A stretch of DNA of 56,564 nucleotides, the filler included, from Basidioascus undulatus (taxonomy: Eukaryota): assembly GCA_000826855.1 (NCBI GenBank). It is 4 parts of 4 records of this genome, joined end to end, with 100 filler letters (N's around TTAATTAATTAA, not from the genome) between each part and the next. Parts side by side here need not be neighbours in the genome. Positions count along the whole stretch, not along the records: positions 28,406 to 42,439 come from JTLS01000760.1; 3 more parts are not named here. The stretch is one strand, 5' to 3'. The translations under genes were made by a program, and so were the position numbers. The notes below the pieces were generated by a model. That model worked only from the letters and a program-made list of their open reading frames with translations. It was not told where the DNA came from and searched no databases. Below are positions 14,136-56,564 of this stretch, one piece after another (position 1 is the first letter of the stretch; every line of letters starts with the position of its first letter).

Positions 14136-14235
14136 NNNNNNNNNNNNNNNNNNNNNNNNNNNNNNNNNNNNNNNNNNNNTTAATTAATTAANNNNNNNNN
14201 NNNNNNNNNNNNNNNNNNNNNNNNNNNNNNNNNNN
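14136..14235. other. Artificial contig linker (N-run / TTAATTAATTAA / N-run)
   Basis: 100-nt block with a six-frame stop motif at 14180-14191; same format as the other two linkers. Confidence 0.97.
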
Positions 14236-20712: not shown

Positions 20713-22002
20713 TGGGGAACGAGTGTGGAGGGAAAGGAGGTTGATGGAGAGGTCAGGTCGGTGAAAAGGAGATGAGAACGCGCGGGTAATGCGGCTGATG
20801 GTCGTGTGAGTGGCGCCGTCTGTGGTGGTCAGTGTAAGAAGGACGAGATGCTCGGTGTACAGTCTCAAGATGCAGCGCCGTGCTTTTTTCGATAATTATG
20901 TTCATGATGCTCCTCGTACCCCGGAATTTTCAAGATCTGGTGAGGGGCACCAAGGGCGCTGGCGCTTGAGTATGGTGGGATCAGGAGCGCTCCATTACGG
21001 CGGGATACAAAATCCCACGCCAAACAAGTGTAGTTTCTTCGGCAAGCTTTTGAACGCCTACAAAAGGTCATCGAGGGAAGCTTGTGTATCTAGCGCATGG
21101 TGAATTATGACCGTGTAGGCTGAGCCGGATTAATTAAGGATTAGCGTGGAGCGACAAGCGATGAGGGAGTGCGCTCGAAGGAGTACGCATCGACCGGCAG
21201 AGGGTTCAGGCGTTTCCACGAGAAGAACGCGACCGCCCTGCGGACGTATGCTTGACCTAAGGTTCCTAATCATTGTCTTGTGAAAGGAATGTGTGATACC
21301 CGAAACGCAGATCTGGTGGTTGAGTGTCATCCACAAAGCATGTGAAGCCTCTGTTCTCCCCGTGCAGTCGTTGTCGATTTTGACAGTGCGTTTCGCCTTC
21401 CCATGCGCCTGCCTTCAGACATGAACATGGCAGCAGAGGAAGACATGGAATCGATACAGGAAGATGAGCAAAATTTCAAATGGGCCTCCATCGTGAGAGG
21501 CCGATGTCCCCGGGCCTTGATCAGTTTGCGGCCTTACTGTGTCGACGGACTTCTTTATCGTATGGACTGTCTCTGCATGAGCAGAACGATCCTAGTCCAC
21601 CCTGTCTACCTGTAGCTTTTTCTGGTCTTCGTGGCTCGAACTCGCAAGAGAGATCATGGTGACGGGCTATTGCCCTCGACAGATACTACACTCCGAAGGC
21701 AATGCTCCTTCCGGAACGGGCGTCCTCGCAATGACATTCTCAAGGCGCCCCGTCACATAGAATTTAGGTAAAAGTGCTTTTCCCGTCATGGCGGCGGCGG
21801 ATCTGGGCCGACAAACCGCATGGGGTGCAAGCTCGAAACGGACGCCACCCATGAGCGATTATCTATCACAGCGCGTTACTCGACAGGTCAAAGCGACCTT
21901 TGTAACTATTAAGAGACTCCAGAAAGCCCCCAGGAGCTTCCTCCTGCATGTTTTTCAGTCGACCAGACGGTGGGATAGTTGGGAACGACTTACTACCCCA
22001 CG

Positions 22003-26571: not shown

Positions 26572-27800
26572 ATGTCCCTCGCTCGCGTCCAGAAGCCTGC
26601 GCCCGCCTTCAAGGGCACCGCCGTCAAGGTGCGCAGGGGCACACGCTGAGCTTCCGCAGGGTGCATTGATGCTGATCGTCGCTTGCTTCGGTGGCCACAG
26701 GACGGTCTCTTCGAGGAGGTCTCCCTTGAGTCCTACAAGGGCAAGTGGTAAGTAACCGTTCATGCCCGTGTAACGGCCTGCGAGGCACGGTGGGCGGAAG
26801 CGGGCGGTGGCCACGTCTTCCTCCTTCGACTCGCTGACTACGGGCAGCTGCCTTGCGTGTTCGATCGGGCCACTGACTTTGGTTCGTATGTGCTCAGGCT
26901 CGTCCTCTTCTTCTACCCGATGGACTTCGTGAGTTGCTTGCTATTATTTGCATCTGTTGCCTCATGAGCTGACGTCGTCGTCACCCATCTTTCTCAGACC
27001 TTCGTGTGCCCGACCGAGGTACGTCACCACAGCCCTCCATGTCGCCATCCACAGCCTTTGCTCATCCAAGTGCACATTCCCAATCATCAAGATTCTCGCC
27101 TTCAACGGTAAGCCGCCTTAGCCATCCCGCTGTTCACGCGTCTTCTGACACCCGTCCCCTACCCCCAGCCGCCCTCCCGAAGTTCTCCGAGCTCGACGTC
27201 GAGGTCCTCGGTGTCTCCACTGACTCCGAGTTCACCCAGTGCGTTTCTCTTTCCTATTCACCTCTCTCAAGGAGGCGGCGGCTGATGCCCATGCTCTTTG
27301 CAGCCTTGCCTGGGCCAACACCCCCCGCAAGGAGGGCGGTCTCGGCCCTGACCTCAAGCTCCCCCTCCTCGCGGACAAGGGTCACAAGGCCGCTCGCGAC
27401 TACGGCGTCCTGATCGAGGACGAGGGTGTCGCTCTCCGTGGCCTCTTCCTCATCGACCCCAAGGGCACCCTCCGCCAGATCACCGTGCGTCTTCACATCC
27501 CGACCCTCCTCATTTGTTCATCTGAAGCTCGACTGACATTTGCGGTTGCCACTGTTGGCAGATCAACGACCTCCCCGTCGGCCGCAGCGTCGACGAGACG
27601 CTGCGTCTGATTAAGGCGTTCCAGTTCACCGATGTCCACGGTGAAGTCTGCCCCGCCAACTGGGACCCTGAGGTACCCCCTTCCTTCCCTTTCCTTCCAG
27701 CGGCAGGTAGCTCACTCTGCCCGTCTGCACGTACCCACAGACCAACAACGCCACTATCGATACCTCGAACAAGAGTGCCTACTTCAGCAAGCAGCAGTAA
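26572..27800 (+). CDS. TSA1: Typical 2-Cys peroxiredoxin (Tsa1/AhpC family)
   Basis: Spliced: [15 protein letters not shown]...[21 protein letters not shown]...GGLG...[12 protein letters not shown]...[16 protein letters not shown]...GEVCPANW...AYFSKQQ*. Both VCP motifs, GGLG and YF are present. Confidence 0.95.
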
Positions 27801-28237
27801 ATCCGCCCTCCTTCCCTCCCTCCCCTCTGCATACATAGAAGACCGAACGATTTCCGCGACCATGGGTTCCTGTGATGGAGCGTTAGCCTTGGAGGGAATG
27901 GTGGGCTGGGGAAGCTGGCACTCGCGCACACCTTGCCTCCCTCCATAGATACATAGACGCGCTGCTTACGATGTGTCTTGGGTTTGTTTCCTCGTGTGCA
28001 CAGCGGCGGCGATGCGAAGGAGGCGCGTCCCAGGGAAGAGGATGATCAGGAAGAGGCCGGCAAGGCGAAGAAGCAGCGTACGGCGTGAGCGGCACACAGC
28101 ATCGGACACAACGATCGTCAAGTGCATCGGATTGAAGATCAAAATGAACGCGACTGTCGGGCGGTAGTATTACATTCAATTATAACTGCAATTATTGTCA
28201 ACACATGGCTCGAATCGATGTGTCGCAGCTCCCGGGA

Positions 28238-28305: not shown

Positions 28306-28405
28306 NNNNNNNNNNNNNNNNNNNNNNNNNNNNNNNNNNNNNNNNNNNNTTAATTAATTAANNNNNNNNNNNNNNNNNNNNNNNNNNNNNNNNNNNNNNN
28401 NNNNN
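28306..28405. other. Artificial contig linker
   Basis: N-run with central TTAATTAATTAA. Confidence 0.97.
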
Positions 28406-29604: not shown

Positions 29605-32520
29605 TCACCACATGCCCCTGACCCGGCCCCTCAACCGCACATTCTCGCACTCGACAACCCTCACGCCCGACGACGCCAGCGCTCCGCTCGTCCCCTCCTT
29701 CCTCCAAGCCTCCACAAGCTCCTTCGCCTCGACGGGGGCAATCTCCGCGTCCCGGGTCCCGATCGTAACGTGCAGGACCTTGCCGCCAACCAAGCCTGGG
29801 ACGTCCTCGGCGTCCTTGTCGTCCTTCCGCCCCTCATCAACAAGCTCCAAGTCCGCCCCAACGAGCGCCATGACGCGGTCGTTCCACACAATGGCGGGGA
29901 CGTCGAACGCATAGCTGGGCGGGGTGACGCGGTCTGCGAGCGCCTTGCAGTGGTCCCACAGCGCGGCCTTCGCGCCCGGTTTGTCGCCCTCAGCTGCGAC
30001 CTCCTTCTCGTGCACGAGGGTGACGTGCGGCGGGGCATTCGCGCGCTTCGCGTCCCGCAGGAGATCGAAGAACTCGCGGGCCGCGGCGTGCGGCTGCTCC
30101 GCGTCCGGGTCGAGCGCGATTGCGTCCAGGATGGAGGGGACGAGGGTCGGGATGGACGCCTCGACCGCGAGCGCAAAGTAGCGCGGCGCTTTGGTCAGCG
30201 CGCCCGAGGCTTGCGCGGCCTTGCGCAGGGAAGGGTTGTACGCGCGCACTGCCTCGAGCGCAGCGCGGACTTCGGCGTCCGGGATTTCGCGGAGGTCGGA
30301 GAGGACTGCGCGGAGGCCGTCGACCGCGCGGCGGAGCCCAGCCTCGAGGTCCTCCTCCACGTCCATTTCGATCACGCCGTCGAAGCCCTCCGCGTCCGCG
30401 TCGAACTCCTCCACTTGCCCGAGGAAGCGGTGTAGAATCTCCTCGTAGTCCTTCCCGCCGCCCGGCTCGGCTCGCAGGCTCTGGTGCCGCTCGCCGCGCG
30501 AGACAATGCGGTCTGCGCAGATCCGGTGGATCGCGTAGCGAGGGAGCGCCGTCGTAGACCAGTGCATGGCAACTACACGCGTGCGCGGAAGAGGGGGCTT
30601 GGCCTTGCCCGGGAGGCCGGCGAGAGCGGAACGGTGTTGGAGGAGATGGTTGTTGCTGATGAGTGGAACCGGGAATGGATGTTAGTCATGCTCGGGCGAG
30701 ACGGCTGCCAAAAAGGGGACGCACCGGTCAGCGAAGACAACGTCGTTGGTCCTGAGGAGGTTCTTGACGTTGGTCTCGAACCCAGCGGCAGTCTTCTTCG
30801 TCGCCACATCGTCGCTCTGAGTGTGTCCGAAGCCGAAAAGGTGCGAGAGCGCGATGCCGATGGCGGTTTTGCCTGCGAGCGAATGAGTGAGTATTGAAGG
30901 CAACGCGACTGTAAGATGGGATGCAGGCCACGCACCGCATCCGGGAATGGCAATCGGGACGATCAGCGTCTTCTCGAACGGCCGGGTGTCTTGTGCCTTC
31001 TCGTCGAGCTCAGTCGTGCGCGCCTTAAAGCCCTTCGCCTTGCCCTTCCAGCCCTCCTTGAACTCCTTCAGCCGCTGCGCGCCCCCGGTCGTCTCCGTGT
31101 ACCGCAAGAAGCGCTCGCGCGCCGCGATGATGCCCCGGCCGCGGTTGAAGCCCTCGTACGCCTTCGGGTCGCGCTTGAGCTGGTCGCGCGTCCACTCGAC
31201 GTACAAGACCGAGTCGGGGTACGTCGGGCGCATGCGCGCCGGCTGGCCCTTGGCCGCGCTCGAGATGAGGTCGCGCGTGAGCTCGCGCCACTCGCGGTAC
31301 ATGAGGTACGGCTCGTCGAACTTGACTTTGAAGAAGAACGGCGCGCCGACGGGGTACGGCGGCGCGGCGGGCCCGCCCTTGCCCACCGTTCCGTTGCCGG
31401 AAGACGGGGCCCCATCGGACGGAGCCTTGTCCGCGACGTGGCACCGGACGACGAAGCCCTCAATCGCCTCGCCATCGATCGCGCCGCCCTCGCGTTCGAT
31501 CTTGGCCGCGTACTCGCGTACGGCGCCGAGACTGGTGAAAAATCGGGAGCGGGTCTTGATGAACCCCCACTCTTTCGCGAACGCTTGAACGACAGGGAAC
31601 GGCTCGGTCTGGAAGCCGGCGGTGTTGTGGTTCAGGCCGTGCAGGTGGAGACCGCGGCGGTCGGGAGGGTACGCGAGAACGTGCTCTTCAAAAGCGTCGT
31701 CGCAGAGCTGGAGCGATAAAAATAACAGCTATGTCAGTAAGAATATGCAGAGCGATCAAGCAATTCCAGACGCACCTCGGCAACCGCAGTCCGCCCGGAC
31801 TCCCACAGAACCTTCGCGAGCTGCTCCTTCGTCCGCCCCTTCGCGGCAAGATGCGTGTCGAGCCAGCGCTCGCCGACCTCCGCGTGACTCTCGTTCTGGC
31901 CCTCGGCTGCATTTTGAGCGTTCGGTGGTCCCAGGGCGTGCTTCGACGTTACGACGAGGTCGGTCGGAGAAAGCGCGGAGATGAAGATGATGCAGCCGTT
32001 CTCCTTGTACGTGAGCGAGTAGGGGCCGCTGGTGTAATGCTCAAGGTTGTCCCACTGTGTTGAGGCGTAGCCGATGAAGGAGGCGTAACCGATGGAGGAT
32101 GTTCGAGATGCGATTCGACGATGTGAGTTCGTGAAGAGCAGCGAGAAGAGGTAAACGAGTGGACACAAGCCGTTTGTGAGCGTCGCTCGGGAAGATTCGC
32201 GGGAGACGTAAACGAACTTCTGTCCAGGATACCTCGCCAACGTTGAAGAACTTGTCATAACCTCGCACCGCGATCCGCTCGTCCTTGCCCTCCGGGACGC
32301 TGAAGAGCCCACGCGCGAGCGTCGGAAAAGGGCAAGGCTGCTTCTTGTACGCATACTCGGCCATCTTCCAGCTCGTGACCGCATGTCCGTGATACTGGTG
32401 GTCTGTGGAGCGGACGAGCTTCCCCGAGTTTTTCGCTTGGCGAAGCGCGCGCAGGAGAGATGCGCCAGCGGGGTCGACGGAGAGCGGCGCGAGAGAGGGA
32501 GGGCTCGAGGCGGAAGGCAT
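29605..32520 (-). CDS. TRL1: Fungal tRNA ligase (ligase, kinase and cyclic phosphodiesterase domains)
   Basis: SWKMAEYAY, PTLARGLF, VRGYDKFFN, motif I TYKENGCII, VTSKH, FFKVKFDEPYLMYREWRE, P-loop IAIPGC/GKT (split by an intron), FADR, and two HVT motifs of the CPD domain. Confidence 0.95.
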
Positions 32521-33609
32521 GATGAGTGTGTGGAAAGAAAACGGGTATAACGAAAGTTTGAGATGCGATACGATTCGAATGGTACAATGTTAGTACGATG
32601 AGGAAGATGGATGCGAACACATGCAGAGTGACAGTGTGAAGGTGTAAAGATATAAGAAAGGCAAGAGAAATGACCACGCTGGGAGCGAGTCTGGCTGCGT
32701 CAGCTTTCCCCGCGCCGGTGTGTCTCCCTTTTTTTCATATCAGCGAGGTGTTTCCTTCGAAGAAAGGCCTTCCAAGTGCGAGATTCATTAAAATCAAAAA
32801 TGAGATACTTGGAGAGTAGAGCACCACTCCAAAAGATATGCTGTCCCAGCATCGCACAGCTCTTGCCGTGCGTGCCGACTGCCCGACTCGGAAAGAAGAT
32901 TGCGCTTCCTCAACCCTGTTTTGAAGCCGAAGGAGACGCCAGAAGAAATGTCTTATTTTCCCTTCCTGTGATTGTATTACTTATCATGCAACCCGTGGGA
33001 GGACTCTCACCCGGTTGTGAACGGCACAACATGCTCACAGTCAAGACTGATGACTTCGGAAGGTCTCAATGACGCCGAAAATTGCATTAGTTTGGGCCTG
33101 AAATGACAACTGTTGATTTTCTTCCGGAGCTTTTAACCTGCTCAGCCAAGTCGTGGACCAGTTTTCGATGAGCACCTTGGCGGTAGTGGCTCACTGTCAT
33201 GATTTTAAGGTAGAGTCTATGCCAAGTGTTGTGATGGTGCACCAGGTTCAAACAACCGCGACTTGTTTTTCGATCAAGTGATGGTCGGAAACCACCTTAA
33301 AATGCCTAGCGAGTCAGGCCACGATGGCTGCGGTGTGCTTGTGAGACACCCGCCAGGGCCACACGACTTTGAGGACAGTGTCTTTCTTCACAGAATCACT
33401 CGTAGAAGCAAACAAGTCCCTTGGTAACTCAGGTCCGGCTATGTTCCACGCACTGCGGTCGACCCGCTTTCGAGGTGCTCCCGCGTCCACCCAACCTGCC
33501 TTCCCGCATCTGCTGTCTTCCGTAGGAGTTATAAACAGCTTCTTGAGGCCTACACAGAGGCTCATTCACTTAACAGACGTTTCTTCTCTCCCTCAATCAG
33601 ACCGCCGCA

Positions 33610-34696
33610 ATGCTCACCTCCCACGTCCTCCGCCTGTTGCCCAGCGTCGCCTGCGTGGCCGCCCAGATCGGCCGCATTTACCCTGGCCTTCCTGCTATGC
33701 CAGCAATTAATCCAGAGCCGATGGCGAGCACACGAATCCCTGCCCCGAGCTACCCTGGCCACAAGCTGTTGCCACTGAGCGACGGACGCTGGGTTCCATC
33801 CCCATCTTTCACCATCAACCCGTCCCTCAATGGTCCAGCCGCCATTGCGGCGGTGCGCAGCGCTTTTCGGGCTGGGTTCCGCCATATTGGCGAGTTTTCG
33901 TGCAACTTGGTCGAGTTATGCCGATCTGAAAAGGAGTGAAACGCTCCTACAGAAACAAGCGGCCAGGACGGTAATTTGGAAGCCATCGGCGAAGCGATTC
34001 GGTTGGAGGGCATCCCGCGAGACCAGCTCTACATCACGGGCAAGTTCGACCGGATGTTCAATACTGTTATCAACCGGACCAATACGGTCCAGCTCGAGTG
34101 GTTCCTCGACAAGCAGGCGGTGGGTTGCTTGTCTGGCCGGTCCTGTCCCCCTGATTGCTCACCCTCGCCTCACCCTGGTTCCTACAGCTCGACATAACCT
34201 ACTTCGACCTTTTCTTGATTCACGACTATGATGTCCTTACCAACGCTCCTCGAGTGTGGCAAAAGTTCATGTGGCTCAAATCTTTGGGGCTTTCCCGGTG
34301 CGCCAATCCCCCCGCAGTGGCGAGGCGCGCCCCGCTTATACCGTTAAGTGAGCTACAGGAGTGTCGGGCTGGTCGATTACACGCCCGAACTGCTCCAGGC
34401 GGTGCTCAGCTTGGCGGTCGAAGGCCTCCGGCCGACAGTCAATCTGATTGATCTCAACGCCGCCACAGCGCCATCGTTGGCCGACGACATCGCCTTCAGC
34501 ACTCGGAATGGCTTGCTGATTGGGTCCTACGGCGGACGTACCCTGGAGGAATCTGTGCAATTGCACGATTCGGGTCTGTGGGTTTCTATGTAAGAGCTCG
34601 TCTGCCTCGAGGTGACTTTCTCAGCCGACTAAGTCCCTCGTCCACAGACAATATGACCCGTCTACGGGTCCCGCATTGTCGGCGTTTTCGAGCTGA
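33610..34696 (+). CDS. Divergent, C-terminally short aldo-keto reductase-like protein
   Basis: LPLSDGRWVP, AVRSAFRAGFRHI, IPRDQLYITGK, LDITYFDLFLIH, VWQKFMWLKSLGLSRSVG. The first intron has a GC donor (33890). The last exon is uncertain. Confidence 0.7.
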
Positions 34697-35199
34697 GGGC
34701 TTAGAAGGCGTAAAATTGTTCACGGATACTCTCTCTCTGTCGTGTACTACTTGATTCTACAGAGCTCGTCATCATGTGTGTTTACGAATGTGCCATATAA
34801 TGACTTCTTAATGCCACTCCCTGATTTGGCGAAGGAGTTGTTGCACAAATTTGTGATCCTCAGCCTCAGTTTAAGGGACGAAGCGCGGAGCAGGCAATTT
34901 CTAGTCGAGCACAGTCGGCCGGTCAACACGGATGAACGATGCTCGGCATCCTGGGAACTTCAATGCGCAGAAGTTTGGCAAGATTTCAGTATGAAGGCGA
35001 TAAGCTGGTCGGCATTAGTAGACTTTCTTGTTGAAGTGGAGCGCGTGGAGCATAGCGGGACGCCTCTCTTACCCGGGGACCACAAGCTCTGAGCGTTCTG
35101 TGCCAGCATGTTGTGTATGCCATTTATTCTGAATGAGACAAAACACGCGACCTCTTCTGTCTTCCCCCCCTGTCCCCTGCACCCCTTCTTCCCTCCCCA

Positions 35200-35652
35200 A
35201 TTTGCCCTAATCGAAGTCACCATCGACCTCCGTAAGGCGTACACCTTTGCTCTCCTCGACACACAGGCGGAGACCGCAGCGCCAAGCTTAATACTCATTT
35301 TGAGTGCCCATGCTTTGAAGTCGCTGTCGCCCAATTCCTCCCGAAGTTCCGAAGTTACCGGATCTCAAGGTCAGCGTGACACTTGCCAGACCCCCGGGAC
35401 GTCCCAGTCCAAGTCGTCGAGGAAACCTTCCAAACCCGCGGGGGGCCCGTGAGACGTGTTGTGGAGGCTCAAGTTGATATGGCAAAGTGTAGGCGGAAGC
35501 GCATGCACAAAATCACCAGTTGGCATGTACGGGTCCAGCGTAAGCGTTAACTCGTCGAGCGCCGGACAGAACTCCGGTAGTCGACCCAGCCCGGCTTCCT
35601 TGTGGACTATTACCACTACCAGAGACCTCAAGCCTCTGCCATGAATCTCCAT
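35200..35652 (-). pseudogene. Decayed F-box/LRR-like (RNI-like) gene fragment
   Basis: HGRGLRSLVV..LPEFCPALDELTLTL..LPPTLCHINL (LxxLxL periodicity), then a stop and a frame change. Confidence 0.4.
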
Positions 35653-37001
35653 AAAGTGGGTCAGACTATCAGCAGCAATGCCAAATGCAACGTGTGGAGA
35701 TGACTCACTGCTTGATTAATATATCTTTCCAAGTTTCCGCTGCCCTATCTCGATCTTTCGCATGGGTCGCGTTGAGATCCCCCACACACCGTCTAACAAA
35801 TCCTTCGCCTTTACTGTATATCTATTGTATACTCAGAAAAGGAAAGCTGTACTTCAACTGAGCAAATTTGTTTACGCAGTCTTGAGCGGCCGGCGTGGTT
35901 TTACATATCGAGACAGTGCCTCTCACCACCCACCTGGGTGCGGATAAAAAAAAGCGCGAGCCGTCGCGCGTCTTGTGTATAGGTCAGAATATCTATTGCT
36001 TAACTTCTGTAATGACCTCTTCCAGTAAGTCTGGCCACGTTCAGTGACTAGCCTGAGAAGCCGGCGTTGGCCCTCAGTTGATTGTGCCCGAAATAGTTCT
36101 CGCTTCAAGCCCTCAGAGAGGCTGATTGCACCGCTTGTATTGTTTTGGAAGGGGCTCCTCGGAACCCTATAATCCAGCAGATGCTTGAAGGAATGCCTAA
36201 CCAAGAACGGTCCAGCAGGCGGGAGGGGGACATTGAAAGCGAACGCAGAGACGCGACACACCACCGTCGGGCCACACTACTCTCAGCACCAAACCGCCTC
36301 TGCCAAAAACTCATAAAGCCATGACCCAAAGTCAACTCACCGCCCGCTATAAAGCTAATTCTTGCCTCATCCGTACTCTTCCCACACGGCATACCGGTAT
36401 CTACTAGGCTGGAGTCGGGAGTCCAGCACGTCACTCACAGCCGCCACTTACCCACGCACGAGAGAGTGGAAGTGGTTGATCATTTACGCTGCCACGCACG
36501 ACTACCCTGTGTTTTCCCAGAAGCGTGGTCTCCCACCCTCTCTAGGGTACTTTTCCCATACCCTGGCTCCAACGACCAGCTCTCCCCCACCACTGCTAGT
36601 GGGGATCCGCGCGAGACACCAAGACGATCTTCAACGGGCAACGGTCCTCAGCTTCCATTCAGAATAGCAAAAAAGGATCAGTGGTTCAATTTCTGTAAAC
36701 TTGAATGCTATTCCGCTGTGGGTATGTGGCTGGCGTTGGGTATCAGTTCCACGCAAACAGCCAATAAATAGGCTGCAACTGAAGGGCTAAGAATTGGCGA
36801 TCTGGCCGCTTGCGGTCTGGTATTATGAGCCTTTCCATATACGCACGATGATATGGAATGGCTAATGAAACGAAGGCCAACCGAGCAGGTGTGGACACTG
36901 AAAGATCTACTGCAGTGATACTTTACCCTCAGCACCAACCCGGAGCTCCTAAAACTTCATCAGCCATGAGAGGCTGATACCCCATACCGGCATTCTCGCA
37001 G

Positions 37002-39166
37002 CCGGACAGTCCATCCCAATCCATCCCATTTGAAGCACGCGGCGTCCATGCAAGTTCCCACCCACCCAACCAGCTCCGCCTCTACTGCACCTCCTCGGAC
37101 CACTACCGGTCCTACGCCGGGTCCTCCTCCGCCTCGACCCCCCACCCGATCGAGTTCCCCGCGACGTGCGAGGTCAAGGTGAACGGACAGACGCTGCCTG
37201 CGAACCTGCGCGGGATCAAGAAGCAGCCGGGGACGGCGCCCCCGGCTGATGTGGATGGCGCGGGCAGCTTGCGTTGGGGCATTAGGGACGTTAATCGCGT
37301 GGAGGTTACTTATATGAACGCGCCTAAGGTGCGTGGGCCGTGCTTTGGCTTTTTGATGGGCGGTCGGCGGCTCGTGCTGGTGGAGAGGGAGGAAATGGTG
37401 GTGGGGGATGAGAGCTGATGTGGTGGGAGATGCGGGATGCGGGGACGAGCAGAAGTACTACCTAGTCGTGAACCTCGTCGAGGTCAGCTCGGTCGAGCAG
37501 GCCGTTGAGCGCGCGAAGACGGGAAGGTTCATCGCGAAGGAGGAGGTCGTGCGGTCGCGTGCGTTCCCTCCCCCCCCCCTCTCCGCTCCCGCTCGCCGGG
37601 GAGGTGGCGGAAGGAGGAGAGGAAGGAGAAGTGGGATTGACAACGGGATGGGTGGATGGGGCTGGGGGGAATAGTGCAACAGGATAACGAGGACGACGAT
37701 ATCCAGACGGGCGCGAGCTCGTTGAGTTTGAAATGCCCGGTGCGTCTCCCCTCCTTCTACCCTGCTTCCATCGCAGGAGGAATCCAAGTGCGCGCTGGCG
37801 GCTGACGCTCAGATGCTGGGTGGGCTTGGGTAGCTCTCCTTCATCCGAATACGGATCCCGCTCCGCTCGGTGCACGCATCCTCGATCCAGTGCTTCGACG
37901 CCGAGACGTTCTTCAGCATCAACGAGCAGACGCCGACGTTCTTGGACCCCGTCAGCAACAAGCGCGTGGGGTGGGACGAGCTCGCTGTGGATGGGTGAGT
38001 GGGGGTCCACTTACTGGGGAGGGACAGCGCTCACTGTTTCGAAACACAGCTTTACCTGGGACATCCTCAAGTCCGTGCCCGACTCAGTCGACAGTGTCAT
38101 CGTTGAGCCCGACGGGCAGTGGCACACCGACGACGGCAAGTACGGCTCGCCGGCGTGGCTCGAGGCGCACCAGTCCCAGAAGCAGTCCACCACCGCGTCT
38201 GCGTCCGCGCGGCTGTCGCTGCTCGAGCCCATCAAGGCCGAGGACGGGGAGGCGCCGGCGTCGAACGGGAAGGGCCGCGCGTCAGAGGCGATCGTCCTTG
38301 ACAGCTCGGATGACGAGTCGTCCGCCCCTGCGCCCGCGGCGAGGCCGCGCGCGTCGAACGGGATAGGCCACGGCAGGCCACCGCCGAGGGAGGTCATCGA
38401 CCTCACGCTGTCGAGCGACGACGAGGACTACGCGCCACCGCCTGCGCCTGCGGTGAAGCGCCCGAGGCCGAGCGAGGACGCGGGCGCACAGGCACAGGTC
38501 CCCCCGGAGAAGAGGGCGCGGCTGGACGTAGGACAGGGACAGGCAGGTCCGCAGACCCAGTCCTTCTCTTCCTCTTCCTCCTCCTCCTCTTCCTCTCATC
38601 CCCCTCCCCCACGGACAACGTATGCTGAGCGCCCGCCGTCTTCCCGCACCCCCAACCCCAACCCCGCATCCACAAACGTCTCACCCAAATCGTCCTCGCC
38701 CGTCAATCCTCCCGCTACCGTCCCCCTCCCCTTCGGTCAATACCGCTCCGCCGACACCGGCGCGTCCTCAACAACAACGACCACCACCCCGCCTCGACCT
38801 TCCTCTTCCACCTCCACTACACGCTCCCCGCAGCCCCCCGCGCCCCTGCCCAACCCCTCGTTCCTCCGCCGCTCGTTCCCCACGCACCACGCGCGCCCCC
38901 CACCATCGCAGGCGCAGGCGCTGGGACAGCAATCACAGGCGCCATCCCAGTCTGGCCTGCCGAGCTCATCTACCACCACGGCGGTGGGAACGGGTAGCGG
39001 CAGCGCGAGCAAGGGGGCGTGGCTTGCGGCGCGCGCGGAGGAGCTGGGCGAGCGGAGGACGAGCGCGCCGGGCTCGGGCGCGGGAGGGGGAGGGGGGTTC
39101 GCGGCTTGGCAAGGCGGCGGCGGAGAGTTCGGCTCTGACGCGGCGGGAGGAGGAAGAGATTGGTGA
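37002..39166 (+). CDS. SIZ1: Siz/PIAS-family SUMO E3 ligase (PINIT, SP-RING-like domain, SIMs); 5' exons not found
   Basis: QLRLYCT, PIEFPATCEVKVNG, NLRGIKKQPGTAPPAD, NRVEVTY, KYYLVVNLVE, DDDIQTGASSLSLKCP-LSFIRIRIPLRS..QCFDA..EQTPT, VIVEPDGQW, SIM EVIDLTLSSDDED. Four GT-AG introns keep the frame. Confidence 0.85.
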
Positions 39167-39726
39167 GAGGGGGAGGGGGAGAGGGTCTGTCTTCCGCGTC
39201 TCAACATAGCATCGCATCGCATTTCCATTACACGTTCCTACTTTCTTCTTCTGTCGTGTCGTCCCTTTTCGCTTCTCCCCGCCTCTCCCCATCCGGCGTC
39301 CGACGTTGAGGTCGTCGTCCCTCCCTCACTCCCCCTCCTGATGTTCTGTTGTTGATGTGATTCCACATGTCCACGTTGTGTTTATAGGTAGCTAGATAGC
39401 GCGCTTTTTTGTTCATTCACTCACACACTGCAGTTCTGAACGTGCGCGTCTGACTGTCTGCTTTGTGAGAATGCGGGGGGATGGAAGATGGAAGGAAAGA
39501 AGAGGGAAGCGTTGGAACGGGATCGAGTGGAAAGATGTGTTCTGGATATCGTCGGCGAGTAGCGGTGAGGGAGAGCGTGAGCAGCTGCTCATCTTTGACC
39601 TTCTAGCTTGAACGTTGCCATTGCCATTGATGACTGGATGAAGACTGCAGAGCCAGTTGTGCCTGTAAGAGGACGAAATATGGGGAAGGGAAGACAAGTT
39701 TGATTTTTGAGAAAGGACAGTATAAC

Positions 39727-39809
39727 TCTTTGGTAGTATGGTGGCTAGTATATCCGCTTGTCATTCAAACTGACCGCGGGCGACCCGGGTTCAATTCCCG
39801 GCCAGAGAG
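39727..39809 (+). tRNA. tRNA-Asp (GTC) with an intron of about 11 nt
   Basis: Acceptor TCTTTGG/CCAGAGA plus discriminator G; anticodon stem TCCGC/GCGGG around TT-GTC-A; intron about 39764-39774; T-arm CCGGG-TTCAATT-CCCGG. Confidence 0.9.
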
Positions 39810-40499
39810 CATTCTTCAGACCCATGATGTCTGACATCTGTATTCAGATCTTTTGCTCATCAGGCTTGTCTTTCTCTCTTGGAGACTGAAGCCAGCTTGG
39901 AACTATTGCTTCTATTAGTTCAAAGGCAGCACTATTACCAAGCACTGCTACCCACCAACTTCACCCACAAAATGCAGGCTCTTCTCAAAGCATGCAACTA
40001 CTGGGTGCACTGTGCATGCACCTCTTCACCCTGTGGGCAGGGCAGCCAGGGGTGTTTGGGAGTTGAGCAGCACTAAGGAGGTATCTCTCCCCTGGGGAGG
40101 AGGGGAGGGGGAGGATGGTGCGGAGGGAGGAGGTTAAGCAGTTGGATATTTTTGCTGGTGATGCTGTAGGTGGGAAGGTATGTTGTCAATCCTGCAAGGG
40201 CAAGTTATGAAGGTTACATTTGAACACTCCATTCATGTCAACTCTACAGCCCCAGGCCACAGCAACAGGATTGTCCCTTTTTGTCTCACTGCACAGCACT
40301 GCTCTCATTTCACCCACCAAAACACATCAATGGTTCCCAACTCTCCCATTGCATTTGGGCACCTCCCCAGCCCAGTTATCTCATCTTCACCTCTGTCCTT
40401 TCATCACTTACCTCATTGCCATTGTTTCCTTCTGTTCCCCTATGCAGTCTGAACTCTGTGTTCTCATATGTTTTTATGGACTGGTCTGGTAGTCTGGCC

Positions 40500-42310
40500 A
40501 AATAGACCTGTATCTGGGAAAATGGATGCAAGTCTGGGAAAATAAACATGTGGCTGTGAAATTGGACATGTCTCTGGAAACACAGACAAGTTGTGTCTGG
40601 CAGGATAGGCATGTGTCTGCCAATATAGACATGTATCTGAAATTGCTGTGTGAGTATGCAGTTTGGTCTGGTCTGAAGGTCTGGCAGGATGACCACCAGC
40701 TGGATCACAACCACCAGCCTCTCTGTCAGAATGACAACCAGCAGTGGTTCTGTCAGAATGACAACCAGCAACAGTTCTGTCAGAATGACAACAATCAGCT
40801 GTTTGTAAATCTAGATAAGGTACATCTAACAGGATAGACTTGTACCTGTAAATCTAGACAAGTGTCTGCCAAAATAGGCATGTGTCTGAACTCACAGACA
40901 GGGTGCATTTGCCTGCCTGGATAGACACATGTCTGTGTGGATAGACATGTGCCTGCAAGAGATGTGTCTGGGAAAATAGACATGTATCTGGTGAAATAGA
41001 TGTGTCAATTACAGACAGGCTGTGTCTGTCCAGATAGACATGTGTCTATGCATGTGTCTGGGGAAATAGACATGTGTCTGGAGAAATATACATGCATCTG
41101 AAATTGCAGACAGGCTGCCAAGATAGACATGTGTCTGTTTGTTAGACATGCATTGGCAGAAATAGACATGTGTCTGGAAAAAGAGATGAGTGTCTGATAT
41201 TCCAAACAGAGTTTCAATCTGCAATCCAGAATATGGAATACAGAGTTTCTTCTCTGCCAGGAGAAGTTTCTTCTGCAGCAGGACAAATTGTCATGAAGAA
41301 GGTGAGTTTCTTCTGGAGTGAGGAAGTTTCTCCTTGGCTGGGAGAATTCCTCCTGTGGTGGGAGAGTTGTTTATGTGCCAGGAAAATCCCACCTGCAATG
41401 GGAGAGTGTCTTCTGCAGAAGGAGAATTCCTCCTGTGACTGTGGAGTCCGTGTGGGAGAGTTTGTCCTGGGGCTGGGGAATTTCCTGTGCCAGGGGTATT
41501 CTACTTATGGTGTGTTGGATGAGATGATTGATGGCCTCCTGCCATGTGAGAGAACATTTTGGATGGCCTCTGACATGTGGATGGCATCTAACATGTTGGA
41601 CAGCATGTTGAATGAATGTTAGACCACATGCTGTTGAACATGGCAGGAAGTTGTCCAACATGCCACCCTATACATCATCCAACATGTCAGGAAGATGACC
41701 CAAATGTTGTCCAACATGTCAGATGCTTGTCCAATGTGTTATCCAACATTGGGTCCAACACATCATCCAACATGTCATCTAACTTGTTGTCCAACATTGG
41801 GTCCAACATGACAGGGAGGTGTCCAACATGTTGTCCAACATGTCAGAGGGGCATCCAACATTCAGGCAATCATCCAACATGTCAGACAGTCATCCAACAT
41901 GTCATCTAACATGTCAGAGAGTTGTCCAACATGTTGTCCAACATGTCAGAGATTGGTCCAACATGTTGTCCACATTGGTCCAACATGTCCAAGGGGTGTC
42001 CAACATTGTGCACAACATGTAAAGGGAAGATCCGACATTCCATCCAGCATGTTAGGTGGGTGTTCAACATCACATCCAACATGTCAGAAAGCCCTGTAAC
42101 AGTGTGTCCAACATGTCAGCTGGCCGTCCAACATGTCAAGAGGACATTCAACATGTGTTGTCCAACATTTTGGGCAGCCATCCCACATTGGGTTCAACTT
42201 CTGGTCAACATGTTATGGAGGTGTGCAATATGTCTATCAACATGTCAGGTAAGTCATCCAAAATGTCAGCCAACATGTCACATGTCATCCAACATGTGGT
42301 CCAATGTCAT
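40500..42310. repeat. Degenerate CpG-depleted tandem arrays: TAGACATGTGTCTG-like (about 40500-41200) and TGTCCAACATGT-like (about 41560-42310)
   Basis: Dozens of variant copies are readable directly. There is also a 24-nt unit (TGTCAGAATGACAAC...) three times at about 40720-40800. CpG is almost absent. Confidence 0.85.
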
Positions 42311-42439: not shown

Positions 42440-42539
42440 NNNNNNNNNNNNNNNNNNNNNNNNNNNNNNNNNNNNNNNNNNNNTTAATTAATTAANNNNN
42501 NNNNNNNNNNNNNNNNNNNNNNNNNNNNNNNNNNNNNNN
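42440..42539. other. Artificial contig linker
   Basis: N-run with central TTAATTAATTAA. Confidence 0.97.
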
Positions 42540-42700: not shown

Positions 42701-43455
42701 ACTACATGCTGGACGAGATGGAGCGTGCACTGCACGACTCGCTGTGCGTCATCAAGCGGACGCTCGAGAGCGGCTCGGTCGTCCCGGGCGGCGGCGCTGT
42801 CGAAGCGGCGCTCTCAATCTACCTCGAAAACTTTGCCACTACTCTCGTCCGTCCCTCCCCTTCCCCCCCATCCGCCATCCGCCATACCCCTTCACCACCC
42901 CTTCTCCCACTCGAACTAACCTTCTTCTGCTCACTTCGCTCGCACCCAGGGCTCACGCGAGCAACTCGCGATCGCCGAGTTCGCGACCGCGCTCCTCGTG
43001 ATCCCCAAGACGCTGTCCGTCAACGCGGCAAAGGACTCTACGGAGCTCGTGAGCAAGCTGCGCGCGTACCACAACGCGGCGCAATCCGCGCCTACGGGCG
43101 ACCCCAAGAAAGCGCTCCGCAACTATGGCCTTGATCTGCTCAAGGGCGAGGTGCGCGACAACCTCCGCGCGGGCGTGCTCGAGCCTACGATGAGCAAGAT
43201 CAGGAGCCTCAAGAGCGCGCTGGAGGCGGCGACGTCGCTGCTTCGGTGCGTCCTCTCACCTCTACTCCTCCTTCCCTTTCTCCCTTCTCCATTTTGCCGC
43301 TCTTCCCCCTTTCCCTCTTTCCCCACATCTTTTCCCCCTGTTCCCATCCCTGTATCTCTGGTCGCTGACTTGATCGCTTTTCTTGGGAACGCAGTATCGA
43401 CGATGCGATCCGGATGCAGCCCGACCAGCCGGCGGACGACGGGCACGGGCATTAG
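42701..43455 (+). CDS. TCP1: Chaperonin CCT/TRiC subunit alpha, 3' part
   Basis: DYMLDEMERALHDSLCVIKRTLESGSVVPGGGAVEAAL..GSREQLAIAEF..IPKTLSVNAAKDSTELVSKLRAYH..GVLEP..LLRIDD. Confidence 0.95.
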
Positions 43456-44189
43456 TAGGAGTGGGCCGACTTTGGGCGTGGAAAGCAAGAGGTAACGACC
43501 CGAGAGGAGGGGGCAGGCGGGCGGGCGATTAGAATCGGGCCGTGCCATGCTATGCCTTGCTTGTCAGCCGAGGCGGTGCTTTTGTCTGTGTGCGCTGTGG
43601 GGTTGGGCCGGTGGAGACCGGCTGGGTTGAGGGGTTAGGGGATGGTAAGGGCGATGTGTATTGAGTGAAATTGGAGGACCGGTAACAAACCGCAAGGGGA
43701 TTCTGGGTGTGAAACCCAAGGGGTTGATCCAAACAAGGAAAAGGGTGAGGGGCATGGTGAGCCGAGGTGCTTGCGAAGTTTGGTACATTTCCGCCAGTGC
43801 TGATCCTACAGCGAGTCATGAGCAACGTCATGCACGCAAAGGAGAACTGATTTCGCTGATATTGTATGACGAAAGGAGGCTGCTCGATGCGGAGAGCACA
43901 TAGATAGTCACAAGTTGGCAGGAAGGATTTTTTTGGGGGCCCAGCTACGTCGAGCAACAAGCGATCAGAACTGAAGTAACACCACACTCAAGTAAGGGAG
44001 ACAAAAAGCAAGAACCCTTCAGCATTTTCACTGCTCGAGCGCACACATACCAGTCATGCAGGAAATAGCATGCGTTTTCTTCGGCTGAAATAAATGTTTC
44101 AACGCATGAAAACTTCGGACTCGGATCGGCGTCCAACCAAACCACCTCGCCTTTCCACGCCAAGCCAGTCGCTCAAGATGTCGTAACAC

Positions 44190-52639: not shown

Positions 52640-55449
52640 TCACTCCAAATCCTCCCCCATTTCGCTCCCCTCCCCGTCCTCGTCCTCCTCCGGTTCGACG
52701 CCCTCCACAATGTCCTTGATGAGCCCGGCGGACTTGGGGTCCAAGTCCTGCGCGATCGCAAAGTGCCGCGCGGCCGCGGGCTTGTCCTCCACCTCGGTGG
52801 AGCGGTAAATCCGCCCGAGCAGGACGTGTACATTCACTTCGTCGGGGGCGGAGTCCTTCAGGCGGAGGAGGTCGCGGAGGGCGGGCTGAGAGGGACGGCG
52901 GGGACGGTCAGCGGGTGCAGCGACGGGCAGGGAAAGGCAGGGAAAAGGCGGGACGCACCTTGTACTGCTTGAGCGCGACGAGCAGCTTCGCACGCCGGTA
53001 AAGGCACAGCGGCGTATCGGGCGCGACCGCGCACGCCTGCTCGTACAGCTCGAGCGCGCCCTGCTTGTCGCCGACGCGCTCCTTGACCTGCGACATCAAG
53101 ACATGACTGCGTCAGTCGAAAATCTTCGAAACAAACCGGCGGGGTTCAACAATGGAAGTACCATGCCGATGCTGCAGAATAGGACCGCGTTCGAAGGGTT
53201 GATCTCCGCGGCCTTGCGAAAGTGGAACTCGGCAAGCTCGAGCTTCGCCTGCTTCAAGTAGACCGAGCCGAGGCCATACCTGTCCCCTTGCAGCGTATCA
53301 GTCCAGCCCCCAGCTGCCTCTCCTCGAAGCGGCCCACATCCCACACTCACCAAGTGTTGTACAGCCTTCGGTCAAGCCTGACGGCGCTCTCAAAGTACCC
53401 GAGCGCGCGGTCCCACTCCTCGCGCGCGACGCACTCGTGCCCGGCGAGGACGTACGCGTACGCGTGATTCGGCTCGGTCTGGACGGCGCGGACGAAGCAC
53501 CGGAGCGCCTCGCCGTGGTCCTTCTGCAGCGAGAAGCTGTTGCCCACCGCGATCCACGCCTGCGGGGACGTCCGGCACGTCGCGAGTAGCTCCTGCGCGA
53601 GGAAGGAGAGCGGGACCGGCCGGTGCATGTGCCAGAGCAGGGTCGAGTACGTGTCCATGTCGGCGAGGCGGTGAGGGGCGAGGGCGCGCGCGGCGGAGAA
53701 GGCGCGCTCGGCCTGTGAGGCTATGTCAGATATCGAGGTTCGCAGCATGGGAAGGTTCCGCAGCGAACCTTCTGATAATCCACCATCTCGAACCACGCCC
53801 GTCCCAGCCAGCACAGCACGCCGACGTTCCTCCCCATCCCTCCCGCCTCGCCCCCCAGCTCCGGACCAACAAGATCCAGCAAGACGTCGACGGTCTCGCT
53901 ACATCTATAGCTGCACAGGGCAGCGTGAGCCTTGCCGAGCACGCGGAGCATGTCCAAGATCCATGCGTCCGCGTCCTCGGTCTCGGCTGCTTCTTCATCG
54001 ACGTCCGAGAGCGGGCCGGAGGACGTGGGGGAGAGGGGCATCGTATCAGCTGGAGGGGTCGGCTTGCGGCGCTTGTCGCGCGTTGGAGGGACCTGCAAAA
54101 GATAACTGTGTGTGTCAGGAGGCAAGCCCGCGTTAAGAAGCGGGGGGAAGGCATACTCTTGATGGAGGTGGTGGGGGAGGAGCAGGTTTCGACACGGAGG
54201 AAGACAGACGAGTGCTTCTCCTCGTGCCCAGCTCCCCAAGTTGCCGCCCATTCTGTTGCGCGCCCTTTCCCACCTGTCAGCACCACTCAAAAGCCCCCCA
54301 TACCCACAAGGACAGCTCACCCGTTTCGTCGGCGCATTCGCATTCACCGTCGACCCAAACGCCACAGCCTTCGCGCCGCCCGCCCGACTGCGCTTCATCG
54401 CGCCCGTGCGCCCCGCGCCCGGATCGAACCGGAAGTTCGGGAAGCTCGTGGAGGGCTCGTCGCCGGTGTAGAACGAGGGGTCCTCGAGCCGCCCGCGCCC
54501 GGCCATGACGGGCGTCTCGACCTGCACGGCCTGGTGGCCTGCGAGGGCGAAGGGCCGCGTGGACGGCCCCGCGTGGGAGGCGACTTCGGGCGTGAAGAAG
54601 CCGAGGCCAGAGGAAGGGGGAGGCGGTTTGGGAAGTACGCCAGTGCCGTTCGCGGGACGGGCAGAGGCCGTGGAGGTTGCGGTGGATGTTGAGGCGGAGC
54701 GTGGTCGAGGTGGGAAGAAGGTGGATGGGGAAGGATCGGAGCCTGGGAGGCATAAAAGAGGTGAGAAGCCAGTCCCCGCTTGGGAGGCAAGAGGGAAGGA
54801 AGTCTGCGAGGGACGCACCGAGAATGCAGAGCCCCTCGAACGCCTCCCAGAGGAACGGGTCGAGCTGGAGCGCAGCGGTAAAGTGTTCCGCGGCCTTCGC
54901 AGGCTCGTTGCCCTTCCGCGCCAGCGTCCCGAGCTTGCACCTCAGCGCGGCCTCCTGCTGCGCCGAACCCATCGCCCGAGCCTCCTCCGCCGCGTCCGGG
55001 TCCAGTTCTACCTCTCCCACCAACCACCCAACTCAGATCAGCCTTCATAACCTCCTTGACCCTCGCACCTCACATTTCAAAGCCGTAAAGACTCAAGACT
55101 CACGCGCTCCCTCCCTGAGGGCCTTGACCGCCCGCTCAGCCGCCTTCGCGCCCTCCCGATTGCGCCCAAGCCGCTCGCACACGTCCGCGAGGAGCGCCCA
55201 CCCGTGCGCGTCCGCGTCCGCGAGCTGCCCGTGCAGGAGGTGGTACGCCTCGTGGGGCTGGTCAGCGCGGAGGAGGGTCTGGGCGTAGAGGACGAGGGAG
55301 GCCGGGGTCGGGTCGAGCGCATGGAGGTGCGACGCGAAGAAGAGCGCGTTGGGCAGGAGTTGCGATGAGAGAGAGCGCGAAACGAGGTGCCGCAGGCGTC
55401 GAGGGGCCGCTGGGGGCGGATTGGAGAGCGCGGAGGAGGAGGTCGCCAT
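52640..55449 (-). CDS. CDC27: Anaphase-promoting complex subunit Cdc27/Apc3 (TPR protein)
   Basis: NALFFASHL, ALQLDPFLWEAFEGLC, MDTYSTLLWH, SPQAWIAVGNSFSLQKDH, YAYVLAGHE, RLYNTW-YGLG, APDEVNVHVLLG; multi-exon. Confidence 0.93.
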
Positions 55450-55914
55450 CGCGGGCGGCGACCTGAAAGAGAGGTGGTAAAGTTGGAGGAGCGGCTTGGA
55501 GCCTCCTAGCGTCTATGCCCGAAAGTGTGGTATGCCTCAGCGCAGATTCGATATTGGGCTGAGGCTGAAAAATAAAGGCCAGCTGGGTGAAAGAAGGCCG
55601 GTGAGCGTGCGTGGGCGAAGGCAAAGAAGCGGAGGGGGTGAATGGATCAACGAGCGGACGCGCGGCAACGCGCGCTGCCAGGCCTCGGGGCTGCTTGCTT
55701 TTCTTTCAACACGATCGGCGGACATCTCTCACAAAATGAAATTGAATCTGCTGCGCCGCTGTCTTTTCCGTGCATGCGAACCAATTGCATTTGGACGATG
55801 CCGTCCAACACTCTTTCACAGGCAAACAAGCACAAAGGATTCGGCAGTAAGTCTTTTGTTTGCTCATCGATCTTCTACATCGTCGCAGTCCCTCCCGAGC
55901 TCCACCCTCGCACA

Positions 55915-56517
55915 TCAAGACACGTCCATCCGCTCGCCTTGCGAACCCGCCGCGACGGCCGCGGGGGTGGCGGTGCCCGTGCCTGGCGTCTCGTCCGACG
56001 GCTTGCCGAGCTCGTACTTGGCCAGAAGCCGGTCGATCTCTTCGGGCTTGAAGATGCGCGGTTTCGGGAGGTCCGTCTTGCGATCGAGGGTGATGATCGC
56101 AAACTCGACTGCAGGTTCCACATGCCCGTAGTCAGCACCATGGGTATGGAGGAACAAGCGCAAGACGGGAGGTGAGAAAAGCGAGGAAGAGGGAGGACAA
56201 CGCACCCTTCTCCGAATCCAGCGTGGTAGCATCTAGCGTCTTGCTCAGCACCCTCGCCGCGAGCTCGACCGCGCCGTACTTGCTCGGCTCGCCCTCCGCA
56301 CCGGGCTCGCCCTCGGCGGGCTTGGGCGCGGGCTCCCAGAGGCCCATGCCGTCCTTGTAGTCCTGCTTGAGCAGGCTCTGCGCCGTCCCGTTGTTGGCGC
56401 CGATGCACGTCGCCTTCCACCCGGAGTAGTTCCCCGACGGGTCCGAGTGGTACAGCTGGAAGCCGTGGTGTGGGTCGTGCCCCGCGTAGAGGAGCGACAC
56501 CCCGAACGGTCGGAGAC
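55915..56517 (-). CDS. PRE9: 20S proteasome subunit alpha-3, 3' part
   Basis: [62 protein letters not shown]. Confidence 0.93.
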
Positions 56518-56564
56518 CTGCAAGAAAGCATCTCCCCGCTCACGTCAGGCTGATTTGAGGGGTG

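Follow-up and report, generated by a model that had tools for sequence, protein, structure and literature searches.

A Siz/PIAS-type SUMO ligase gene of Basidioascus undulatus whose SP-RING lacks the four zinc ligands

The Siz/PIAS gene at the locus

We analyzed a joined stretch of 56,564 nucleotides (nt) from Basidioascus undulatus, hereafter called the window, along the whole of which all positions are counted. The part taken from JTLS01000760.1 carries a gene of the Siz/PIAS SUMO-ligase type, an assignment made in the original prediction and borne out here by Pfam matches to PINIT and zf-MIZ and by the position of the protein in a phylogenetic tree. Its best explanation is a Siz1/PIAS-type SUMO E3 ligase gene of a Wallemia-related (Wallemiomycotina) basidiomycete. 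The SP-RING encoded by this gene lacks the Cys-x-His ... Cys-x-x-Cys zinc site of Siz and PIAS proteins and carries other residues at all four ligand positions.

The spliced reading frame (Table 1), followed from 37071, comprises 568 codons with zero internal stops and ends in TGA. All introns are of the GT..AG type, with gtgcgt as the donor in three of the four. Pfam assigned the exon 37071..37328 to PINIT (73.2 bits, cut-off 27, E 3.7e-20) over profile positions 48-131 of 142, an extent corresponding to the C-terminal two thirds of the domain; the first third lies beyond a break at 37069-37071. PINIT motifs, splice sites and the SUMO-interacting motif (SIM) had all been predicted to be kept. 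For splicing and the SIMs this was confirmed, whereas PINIT is only partial in the window and its literal motif reads PPADVD. The SP-CTD (FTWDIL...VIVEPDGQW) aligns with canonical sequences and retains alignment positions I66, L67, V77, E80, D82, G83 and W85. No Pfam family matched the low-complexity tail at 38429..39166.

Three public sequencing runs were compared with positions 31000-40500: X1, X2 from another study (2014) and X3, which stems from the same sample as X1 and whose type is not on record; none of the three is registered as RNA. Without a single differing letter, an X1 contig covers 37069-39797, an X2 contig covers 37069-38547 and an X3 contig of 2554 nt leaves out precisely the four introns that had been predicted. 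X3 behaves like a transcriptome assembly because introns are skipped and its depth falls almost to nil between genes; the CT..AC introns of the adjoining minus-strand gene are skipped as well. This provides good, though not formally labelled, evidence that the Siz gene is transcribed and correctly spliced. Since contigs of all three runs agree over the SP-RING exon and none shows canonical Cys or His codons at the ligand sites, the ligand codons are not a sequencing error. A TCC/TCT microsatellite at 38552-38610, which gives rise to a poly-Ser run in the tail, has X2 contigs ending on either side of it.

The 5′ end of the gene was examined separately. Homology to Siz/PIAS proteins in tblastn starts at 37071 for the relatives P0200, P0202, P0002, P0009 and P0329. 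The alignment of P0193 alone extends back to 36987, across an eight-residue gap, and was taken as chance, given that the other four queries begin at 37071, where the contigs also break. With the five relatives that bear an N terminus (P0193, P0200, P0202, P0009 and P0329), tblastn returned nothing upstream of 37071 with E <0.09, and Pfam found neither SAP nor PINIT in 36 plus-strand open reading frames (ORFs) of at least 45 amino acids between 32.2 and 37.2 kb. Read-derived contigs take a different course at this point: X1 record 2 has 12,795 nt before 37069 that are absent from 31000-37068, X1 record 1 runs 18.6 kb beyond 37071 with sequence unlike the window, and the spliced contig, X3 record 20, has 934 nt before 37069 that are placed nowhere on the stretch. 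None of the contigs listed from X1, X2 and X3 spans 37069-37071, and the GC content is 0.527 to the left of the break versus 0.654 to the right.

Because homology start, contig divergence and GC jump coincide, the join at 37069-37071 probably reflects either an error in the source assembly or a rearrangement specific to the strain. In the organism itself the gene is most likely whole, the 5′ exons, encoding the N-terminal and early PINIT regions, being located elsewhere. In Wallemia hederae, 171 residues precede the equivalent point, so that the 934 nt found upstream in X3 would be enough for the N terminus. Two joints at which contigs go back, from 37018 to 36583 (X1 and X2) and from 37071 to 36983 (X1 alone), point to short local repeats near the break. 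Further upstream, the peptide SFRCPISIFRM at 35732-35764 on the plus strand shares 7 of 11 residues (E about 1) with the first SP-RING strand of the relatives. As a piece of an SP-RING this match (RCPISIFRM) was rejected as probably due to chance, with no SP-RING features following it.

Table 1 Coordinates of the Siz/PIAS gene and of other features in the window. X3 is one of the three sequencing runs; joints are the positions linked in its spliced contig.
Feature	Position	Strand	Evidence
Break point; left-hand sequence differs from the 5′ flank of the gene in read-derived contigs	37069..37071	.	Contigs of three runs, GC shift
Exon 1, C-terminal part of PINIT (QLRLYCTSS...YMNAPK)	37071..37328	+	Pfam PINIT, tblastn; donor gtgcgt at 37329
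Exon 2, PINIT end and linker (KYYLVVNLVEV...EEVVRS)	37453..37558	+	X3 joints 37326/37451 (cut +2) and 37558/37675, both GT..AG; tblastn
Exon 3, acidic linker and first SP-RING strand QQDNEDDDIQTGASSLSLKCP	37675..37739	+	X3 joints 37558/37675 and 37738/37833 (cut +1); tblastn
Exon 4, SP-RING core LSFIRIRIPLRSVHASSIQCFDAETFFSINEQTPTFLDPVSNKRVGWDELAVDG	37834..37994	+	X3 joints 37738/37833 and 37993/38049 (cut +1); Pfam, alignments
Exon 5, whole	38050..39166	+	In-frame joining, TGA stop
Exon 5 start, SP-CTD FTWDILKSVPDSVDSVIVEPDGQWHTDDGKYGSPAW including the conserved V-x-V-E-P-D-G-x-W strand	38050..38158	+	Alignment with 37 canonical rows
First SIM-like motif, AIVLDSSDDE	38288..38317	+	Equivalent motif in P0002, P0168 and P0009
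Second SIM EVIDLTLSSDDED	38390..38428	+	I, D, L, T, L nearly invariant in an 89-row alignment
Low-complexity Ser/Pro/Thr-rich tail with basic patches KRPRPSED and EKRARLD; C terminus ...GGGRDW; TGA 39164-39166	38429..39166	+	
CN hydrolase	1288-2010	-	
Paf1	12248-13719	-	
Ankyrin-repeat protein	19633-20895	-	
1-Cys peroxiredoxin	27526-27945	+	
TCP-1 chaperonin subunit	42920-43492	+	
TPR/APC3 (Cdc27-like) protein	53350-55512	-	
Proteasome subunit	56135-56539	-	

Ligand positions of the SP-RING in the window and its relatives

Within the SP-RING exon, the codons at the four ligand positions are GCA (Ala, 37876), TCG (Ser, 37882), GAC (Asp, 37945) and AGC (Ser, 37954). HMMER alignments to the structures of PIAS2 (4fo9), PIAS3 (4mvt) and Siz1 (5jne) place these residues opposite C, H, C and C, and the same four columns are canonical in every one of 37 canonical fungal homologues (C37, H37, C37, C37). 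Codons, structures and homologues thus agree with the replacements named in the original prediction. Its further claim, that nothing but the ligands had changed, needs one amendment: besides the four ligands, one neighbouring residue is replaced, the window having Phe at 37939, two residues before the third ligand, where canonical SP-RINGs have a conserved Trp. Residues unseen in the 37 canonical rows occupy 5 of 97 SP-RING and SP-CTD columns in the ligand-less rows, namely the four ligands and this Trp-to-Phe change, which each of the four ligand-less rows compared here carries.

The canonical rows have 14 invariant columns. Of these, the window alters four, all of them ligands, which is one of 1001 ways to pick four columns out of 14; the remaining ten (P, R, P, C, F, D, P, D, L and G) are all kept. 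Because the altered invariant columns are exactly the four ligands, the replacement, as judged from these alignments, is selective and beyond chance, in line with the earlier argument that random decay is an unlikely cause of ligand-only loss. Further features kept by the window are the central helix, a hydrophobic residue (L/I) following Cys-Pro and the Pro that belonged to the former C-P-x-C. The Cys residues of KCP and QCFD are retained in all ligand-less sequences, that of QCFD being equally invariant in canonical proteins, and Asp at the third ligand position is invariant across the ligand-less set.

To survey other proteins, we ran an exhaustive HMMER search with the exon, which returned 423 proteins at E ≤0.001. 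Among the best 150 of these 423, 139 carried C,H,C,C, five C,H,C,S or C,H,C,T and one Y,H,C,C; three were partial, non-homologous matches. Of the five C,H,C,S/T cases, three arise from an alignment gap in CPVC and the other two come from odd or truncated sequences. The remaining two matches, P0002 (S,S,D,Q) and P0004 (S,S,D,S), are ligand-less. Sequence clusters and a further search added P0151-P0158, P0164, P0168 and P0175, so that S,S,D,Q is found in P0002 and its eight cluster members and S,S,D,S in P0004, P0164, P0168 and P0175. A motif scan over 328 fetched proteins gave 201 with C,H,C,C, nine with S,S,D,Q, four with S,S,D,S, two single-ligand variants and 112 without the motif (fragments or misses). 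A scan of JGI (Joint Genome Institute) metagenome contigs, made with a ligand-less alignment, brought up 52 loci and no ligand-less one among them; 41 were C,H,C,C by pattern, and the remaining 11 were split by introns and canonical wherever tblastn aligned the ligand positions. A homologue search with the 54-residue exon under the 'longer' setting produced one candidate and no match.

A named organism came from P0200, which shares a 90% cluster with NCBI entry TIA88684.1 (P0329; E3P99_02445) of W. hederae (Wallemiomycotina) at 95% identity. This full-length protein, annotated as hypothetical, combines an S,S,D,S SP-RING and Phe in place of Trp with both SIMs and a full PINIT domain (Pfam profile 2-142, 90.7 bits). 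It resembles the window protein in its ligand-less SP-RING and differs from it in sequence, with about 41% identity over the C-terminal part of PINIT (PINIT-C). The other ligand-less relatives are 50-95% identical to TIA88684.1. Genomes of the Wallemia type are AT-rich and have fewer introns than the window. The pattern A/S, S, D, S/Q is thus shared among orthologues in one clade that includes W. hederae.

These relatives offered some further observations. Their N-terminal stretch looks SAP-like by eye, and P0329 gave no Pfam SAP match at E up to 0.01. The model of TIA88684.1, with 1861 residues, joins the Siz1-like protein to an NRDE-2-like protein at residues about 1099-1399 (Pfam NRDE-2, 102.9 bits), a fusion that is probably an annotation merger of two genes; in P0164, P0168 and P0175, the ORF stops about 420-440 residues past the point at which the SP-RING begins. 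At the C terminus, a Trp is common to the window protein (...RDW, codon 39161-39163) and to P0164, P0168 and P0175 (...FKTW, ...YKTW and ...YHGW) and is a conserved aromatic residue of the window and Wallemia-type proteins.

Phylogenetic relationships were studied with a maximum-likelihood tree of 43 rows and 230 columns, from PINIT-C to the SP-CTD and with the four ligand columns dropped. Its rows were selected from the search lists among the ligand-less sequences and those with a name, and the majority of canonical matches were left out. The window and Wallemia-type sequences form one clade (support 98/93), in which the window is sister to the Wallemia sequences on a branch of ordinary length (0.33 versus a median of 0.24). 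This clade lies within Basidiomycota (99/98) beside Pucciniomycotina, Malassezia plus one other row, and Agaricomycetes/Dacrymycetes. By this tree it occupies the position of a fourth subphylum, as the species tree predicts. Being separate from the three other sampled subphyla, it suggests that the window gene is the Siz1 orthologue of its lineage. The simplest reading would be that the zinc site was lost once, in an ancestor of the lineage and within the Siz1 orthologue.

Constraint on the domain was assessed by comparing pairs of proteins. Window and P0002 share 0.58 of SP-RING residues (ligand columns excluded) versus 0.41 of PINIT-C, while 154 pairs of canonical basidiomycete proteins with a PINIT-C identity of 0.35-0.45 have a mean SP-RING identity of 0.47 (range 0.33-0.63). 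By this measure, the SP-RING is under at least normal constraint and is not relaxed, in support of purifying selection outside the ligand positions. Taken together, we are nearly certain that this is a real, conserved SP-RING without zinc ligands.

Fold, metal and activity of the ligand-less domain

Siz1 and Siz2 of Saccharomyces cerevisiae and PIAS1-4 (PDB 3i2d, 5jne, 6u75, 4fo9 and 4mvt) share with the window protein the domain order PINIT, SP-RING, SP-CTD and, further downstream, a SIM. They differ from it in the ligands, replaced by A/S, S, D and S/Q across the clade, and in the Trp before the third ligand. According to reviews, as represented by passages of PMC12751080, every SP-RING ligase binds a single zinc. 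We found no description of an SP-RING without zinc ligands in the literature, including fungal SUMO-pathway surveys, as far as the consulted parts of PMC13061254, PMC8064691, PMC7691676, PMC11986368, PMC8636563, PMC12687455, PMC12751080, PMC9225081 and PMC13535464 extend, supplements such as S1 of PMC7691676 (fungal Siz domain tables), which might bear on the matter, lying outside this coverage.

The predicted structure was obtained with AlphaFold2 for P0002 from 89 aligned sequences, mostly canonical. Ten-residue means of the predicted local distance difference test (pLDDT) ranged from 84 to 98 over residues 141-250. Foldseek and VIA-align returned Siz1, Siz2, PIAS2 and PIAS3 as the best matches (E 6.6e-18 to 8e-11, Z 16.7-20.1), so that, on this model, P0002-type sequence is compatible with the SP-RING fold. 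A next group of zinc RINGs, Mms21 and U-boxes is tied at Z 5.4-7.0. Within it, the U-boxes of CHIP, Ufd2, LubX and PUB align at Z 5.4-6.3 (root-mean-square deviation 2.4-4.7 over 69-76 residues) and zinc RINGs match equally at Z 5.5-7.0. The proposed comparison with Siz1 and U-boxes therefore upholds the Siz1 fold and leaves U-boxes level with zinc RINGs. Nse2/Mms21, likewise a SUMO E3 with an SP-RING fold (3htk and 7p47, Z 6.0-6.5), differs from Siz-type ligases in lacking PINIT and in the contact of its His ligand with donor SUMO, which the His of Siz1 does not make. Nse2 keeps its zinc site, with His202, Cys221 and Cys226 as ligands, as stated in a portion of PMC8636563.

The ligase type seems able to do without the metal, because Wallemia moulds keep the same ligand change. 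A ligand-less SP-RING probably folds without zinc. We lean, with some reserve, toward a domain that folds metal-free and still works as an E3; this activity is favoured because E2-facing and donor-SUMO-facing positions are kept and the replacements are uniform. That the central helix, the second-loop Pro and the hydrophobic residue following Cys-Pro face the E2 is stated in a figure legend of PMC13061254, and that the SP-CTD strand holds donor SUMO in Siz1 is stated in passages of PMC8064691 and PMC12751080. In such a scenario, an ancestor of the Wallemia-type lineage would have swapped its sole zinc site for small polar or acidic residues (Ala/Ser, Ser, Asp, Ser/Gln), and the neighbouring change of Trp to Phe would repack the former metal site. 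Packing and a hydrogen-bond network around Asp/Ser would hold the fold without metal, as in U-boxes. Docking of Ubc9~SUMO would be kept, the protein would act as an E3, and PINIT, SP-CTD and the two SIMs would act as they do in Siz1. Whether a still broader statement applies appears evenly balanced, namely that the whole subphylum (Wallemiomycotina and relatives) may run its main Siz/PIAS ligase with a metal-free SP-RING. This would form the zero-zinc end of a series of RING (two zincs) and SP-RING (one), with A/S, S, D, S/Q plus Trp-to-Phe as a recipe that keeps Ubc9~SUMO activation.

U-boxes provide the known parallel. They carry (Cys/Asp)-Pro-x-Thr/Ser at the last two ligand positions, a pattern that we take the Asp-Pro-Val-Ser of the window to resemble. 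Like the SP-RING predicted for this clade, the U-box is a RING-derived fold minus the zinc ligands. Active E3s with a RING fold held by hydrogen bonds and salt bridges instead of zinc are what U-boxes are in the account available from PMC13061254. The ligand-less SP-RING differs in having arisen independently, inside the Siz/PIAS family, and its expected partner is the SUMO E2 Ubc9, not a ubiquitin E2. The term 'convergent', used in the original prediction, therefore suits the relation to U-boxes; within SP-RINGs, the tree needs a single origin.

Several observations weigh against a metal-free, active domain. 'Ligase-dead' alleles of Siz and PIAS proteins are usually made by mutating the Cys and His ligands. 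The zf-MIZ (PF02891) score is lower in ligand-less proteins, at 33-42 bits versus 68.2 in the canonical P0009: the window exon alone reaches 33.3 bits (E 4.2e-8; cut-off 33.5; profile positions 7-46 of 50, the earliest positions falling in the previous exon), and P0002, P0168 and P0329 lie above the cut-off with 42.2, 39.9 and 37.1 bits. A Pfam scan of the window exon at E up to 1 found zf-MIZ only and no U-box match, and the comparison of the P0002 model with known structures does not favour U-boxes over zinc RINGs. AlphaFold2 cannot judge metal need, and its input alignment was dominated by canonical sequences. The 5′ part of the gene lies outside the window, and its intactness rests on one transcript-like contig. 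Finally, the zinc-coordinating coil of Siz1 contacts donor SUMO, according to part of PMC12751080, and a rebuilt coil could for this reason weaken catalysis.

The strongest alternative, a serious one although we regard it as somewhat unlikely, is a pseudo-ligase, that is, a conserved and folded scaffold that would bind SUMO through its SIMs, substrates through PINIT and perhaps also Ubc9, without stimulating SUMO transfer. SUMOylation in the lineage would then be left to Mms21/Nse2, to other E3s or to unaided Ubc9. Dead-enzyme scaffolds are common in other enzyme families, which counts for this alternative. Siz/PIAS ligases are usually disabled by loss of the ligand residues, all four of which are replaced here, and the conserved SIMs and PINIT mean that non-catalytic roles could explain purifying selection. 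SP-RING mutants of SIZ1 are compromised in conjugation, as reported in a section of PMC8064691. A scaffold, however, would need neither E2-facing positions nor the SP-CTD strand for donor SUMO (compare the same section of PMC8064691), yet both are kept. The SP-RING is, moreover, the most conserved part of the protein, above the canonical mean at similar divergence, and the same set of small polar substitutions recurs in every lineage.

A second alternative concerns the role of the gene rather than the chemistry of the domain. The window gene could be a specialised paralogue beside a canonical Siz gene in the same genomes, as some fungi have several Siz1-class genes, four in Puccinia graminis by the table in PMC7691676. 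The same table lists one Siz1 orthologue in most basidiomycetes, and in our tree the clade sits at the fourth-subphylum position, neither on a deep paralogue branch nor inside another subphylum, so that we consider a paralogue unlikely. The search lists contain no canonical sequence close to the window or Wallemia proteins, a weak argument in lists ranked by likeness to ligand-less or PINIT queries.

Very unlikely, in our view, is a rearranged site in which the new Asp, the Cys residues of KCP and QCFD and a His or Ser bind zinc or another metal. The Asp is invariant and capable of binding zinc, and both Cys residues are kept. Ala in the window and Gln in P0002 are, against this, poor zinc binders at ligand positions, and, to judge from RING topology, the KCP and QCFD Cys belong to the other, already lost RING site and should be distant from the Asp. 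The QCFD Cys is also invariant in canonical proteins, where it is not among the four ligands. The specific version put forward earlier, with His at 37873 as a ligand, was rejected on the lack of conservation of this His, the position being H, Q, S, S, H and A in the window, P0002, P0004, P0168, P0175 and W. hederae. A decaying pseudogene or an error at the ligand codons, to which the missing 5′ third and the zf-MIZ score just below the cut-off might point, is extremely improbable and was rejected on the identity of three runs from two studies over the exon, the spliced X3 contig with its 934 nt more upstream, the open frame, conservation across a deep clade and the coincidence of the missing part with an assembly break, not decay.

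SP-RINGs have been described as one-zinc domains whose ligands are the standard targets for making ligase-dead mutants, and here a natural, long-conserved version lacks all four. If the metal-free reading is true, the clade represents an independent natural repeat of the RING-to-U-box transition within the SUMO system. Should zinc be dispensable where compensating residues are present, the domain would offer a model for metal shedding by RING-type folds and a template for the design of metal-independent SUMO E3s. If the pseudo-ligase is true instead, a whole fungal lineage would have given up catalysis by its main SUMO E3 and kept the protein as a scaffold, and the view of SUMOylation there would change. 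The analysis also supplies a function-relevant annotation for 'hypothetical' proteins such as W. hederae TIA88684.1.

Neighbouring genes and other features

The other genes of the window (Table 1) are an ordinary fungal housekeeping set. The gene adjoining the Siz/PIAS gene, at 29608-32699 on the minus strand, encodes a fungal tRNA ligase of the Trl1 type with RNA_lig_T4_1, tRNA_lig_kinase and tRNA_lig_CPD domains; its CT..AC introns are skipped by X3 contigs at 31707/31776 and 32054/32218. Downstream of the Siz/PIAS gene, a tRNA gene of 83 nt at 39727-39809 on the plus strand, probably intron-bearing, was detected with Rfam (42.9 bits, E 1.4e-7) and missed by ARAGORN. The X1 depth at this locus is 1434 versus about 50 in the flanks (about 30x), and many contigs end there, which suggests that the gene belongs to a multi-copy tRNA family. 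Identical N patterns (44 N, 12 bases, 44 N) lie at 14136-14235, 28306-28405 and 42440-42539, about 14.1 kb apart and close to the quarter points of the window, and are unrelated to the gene.

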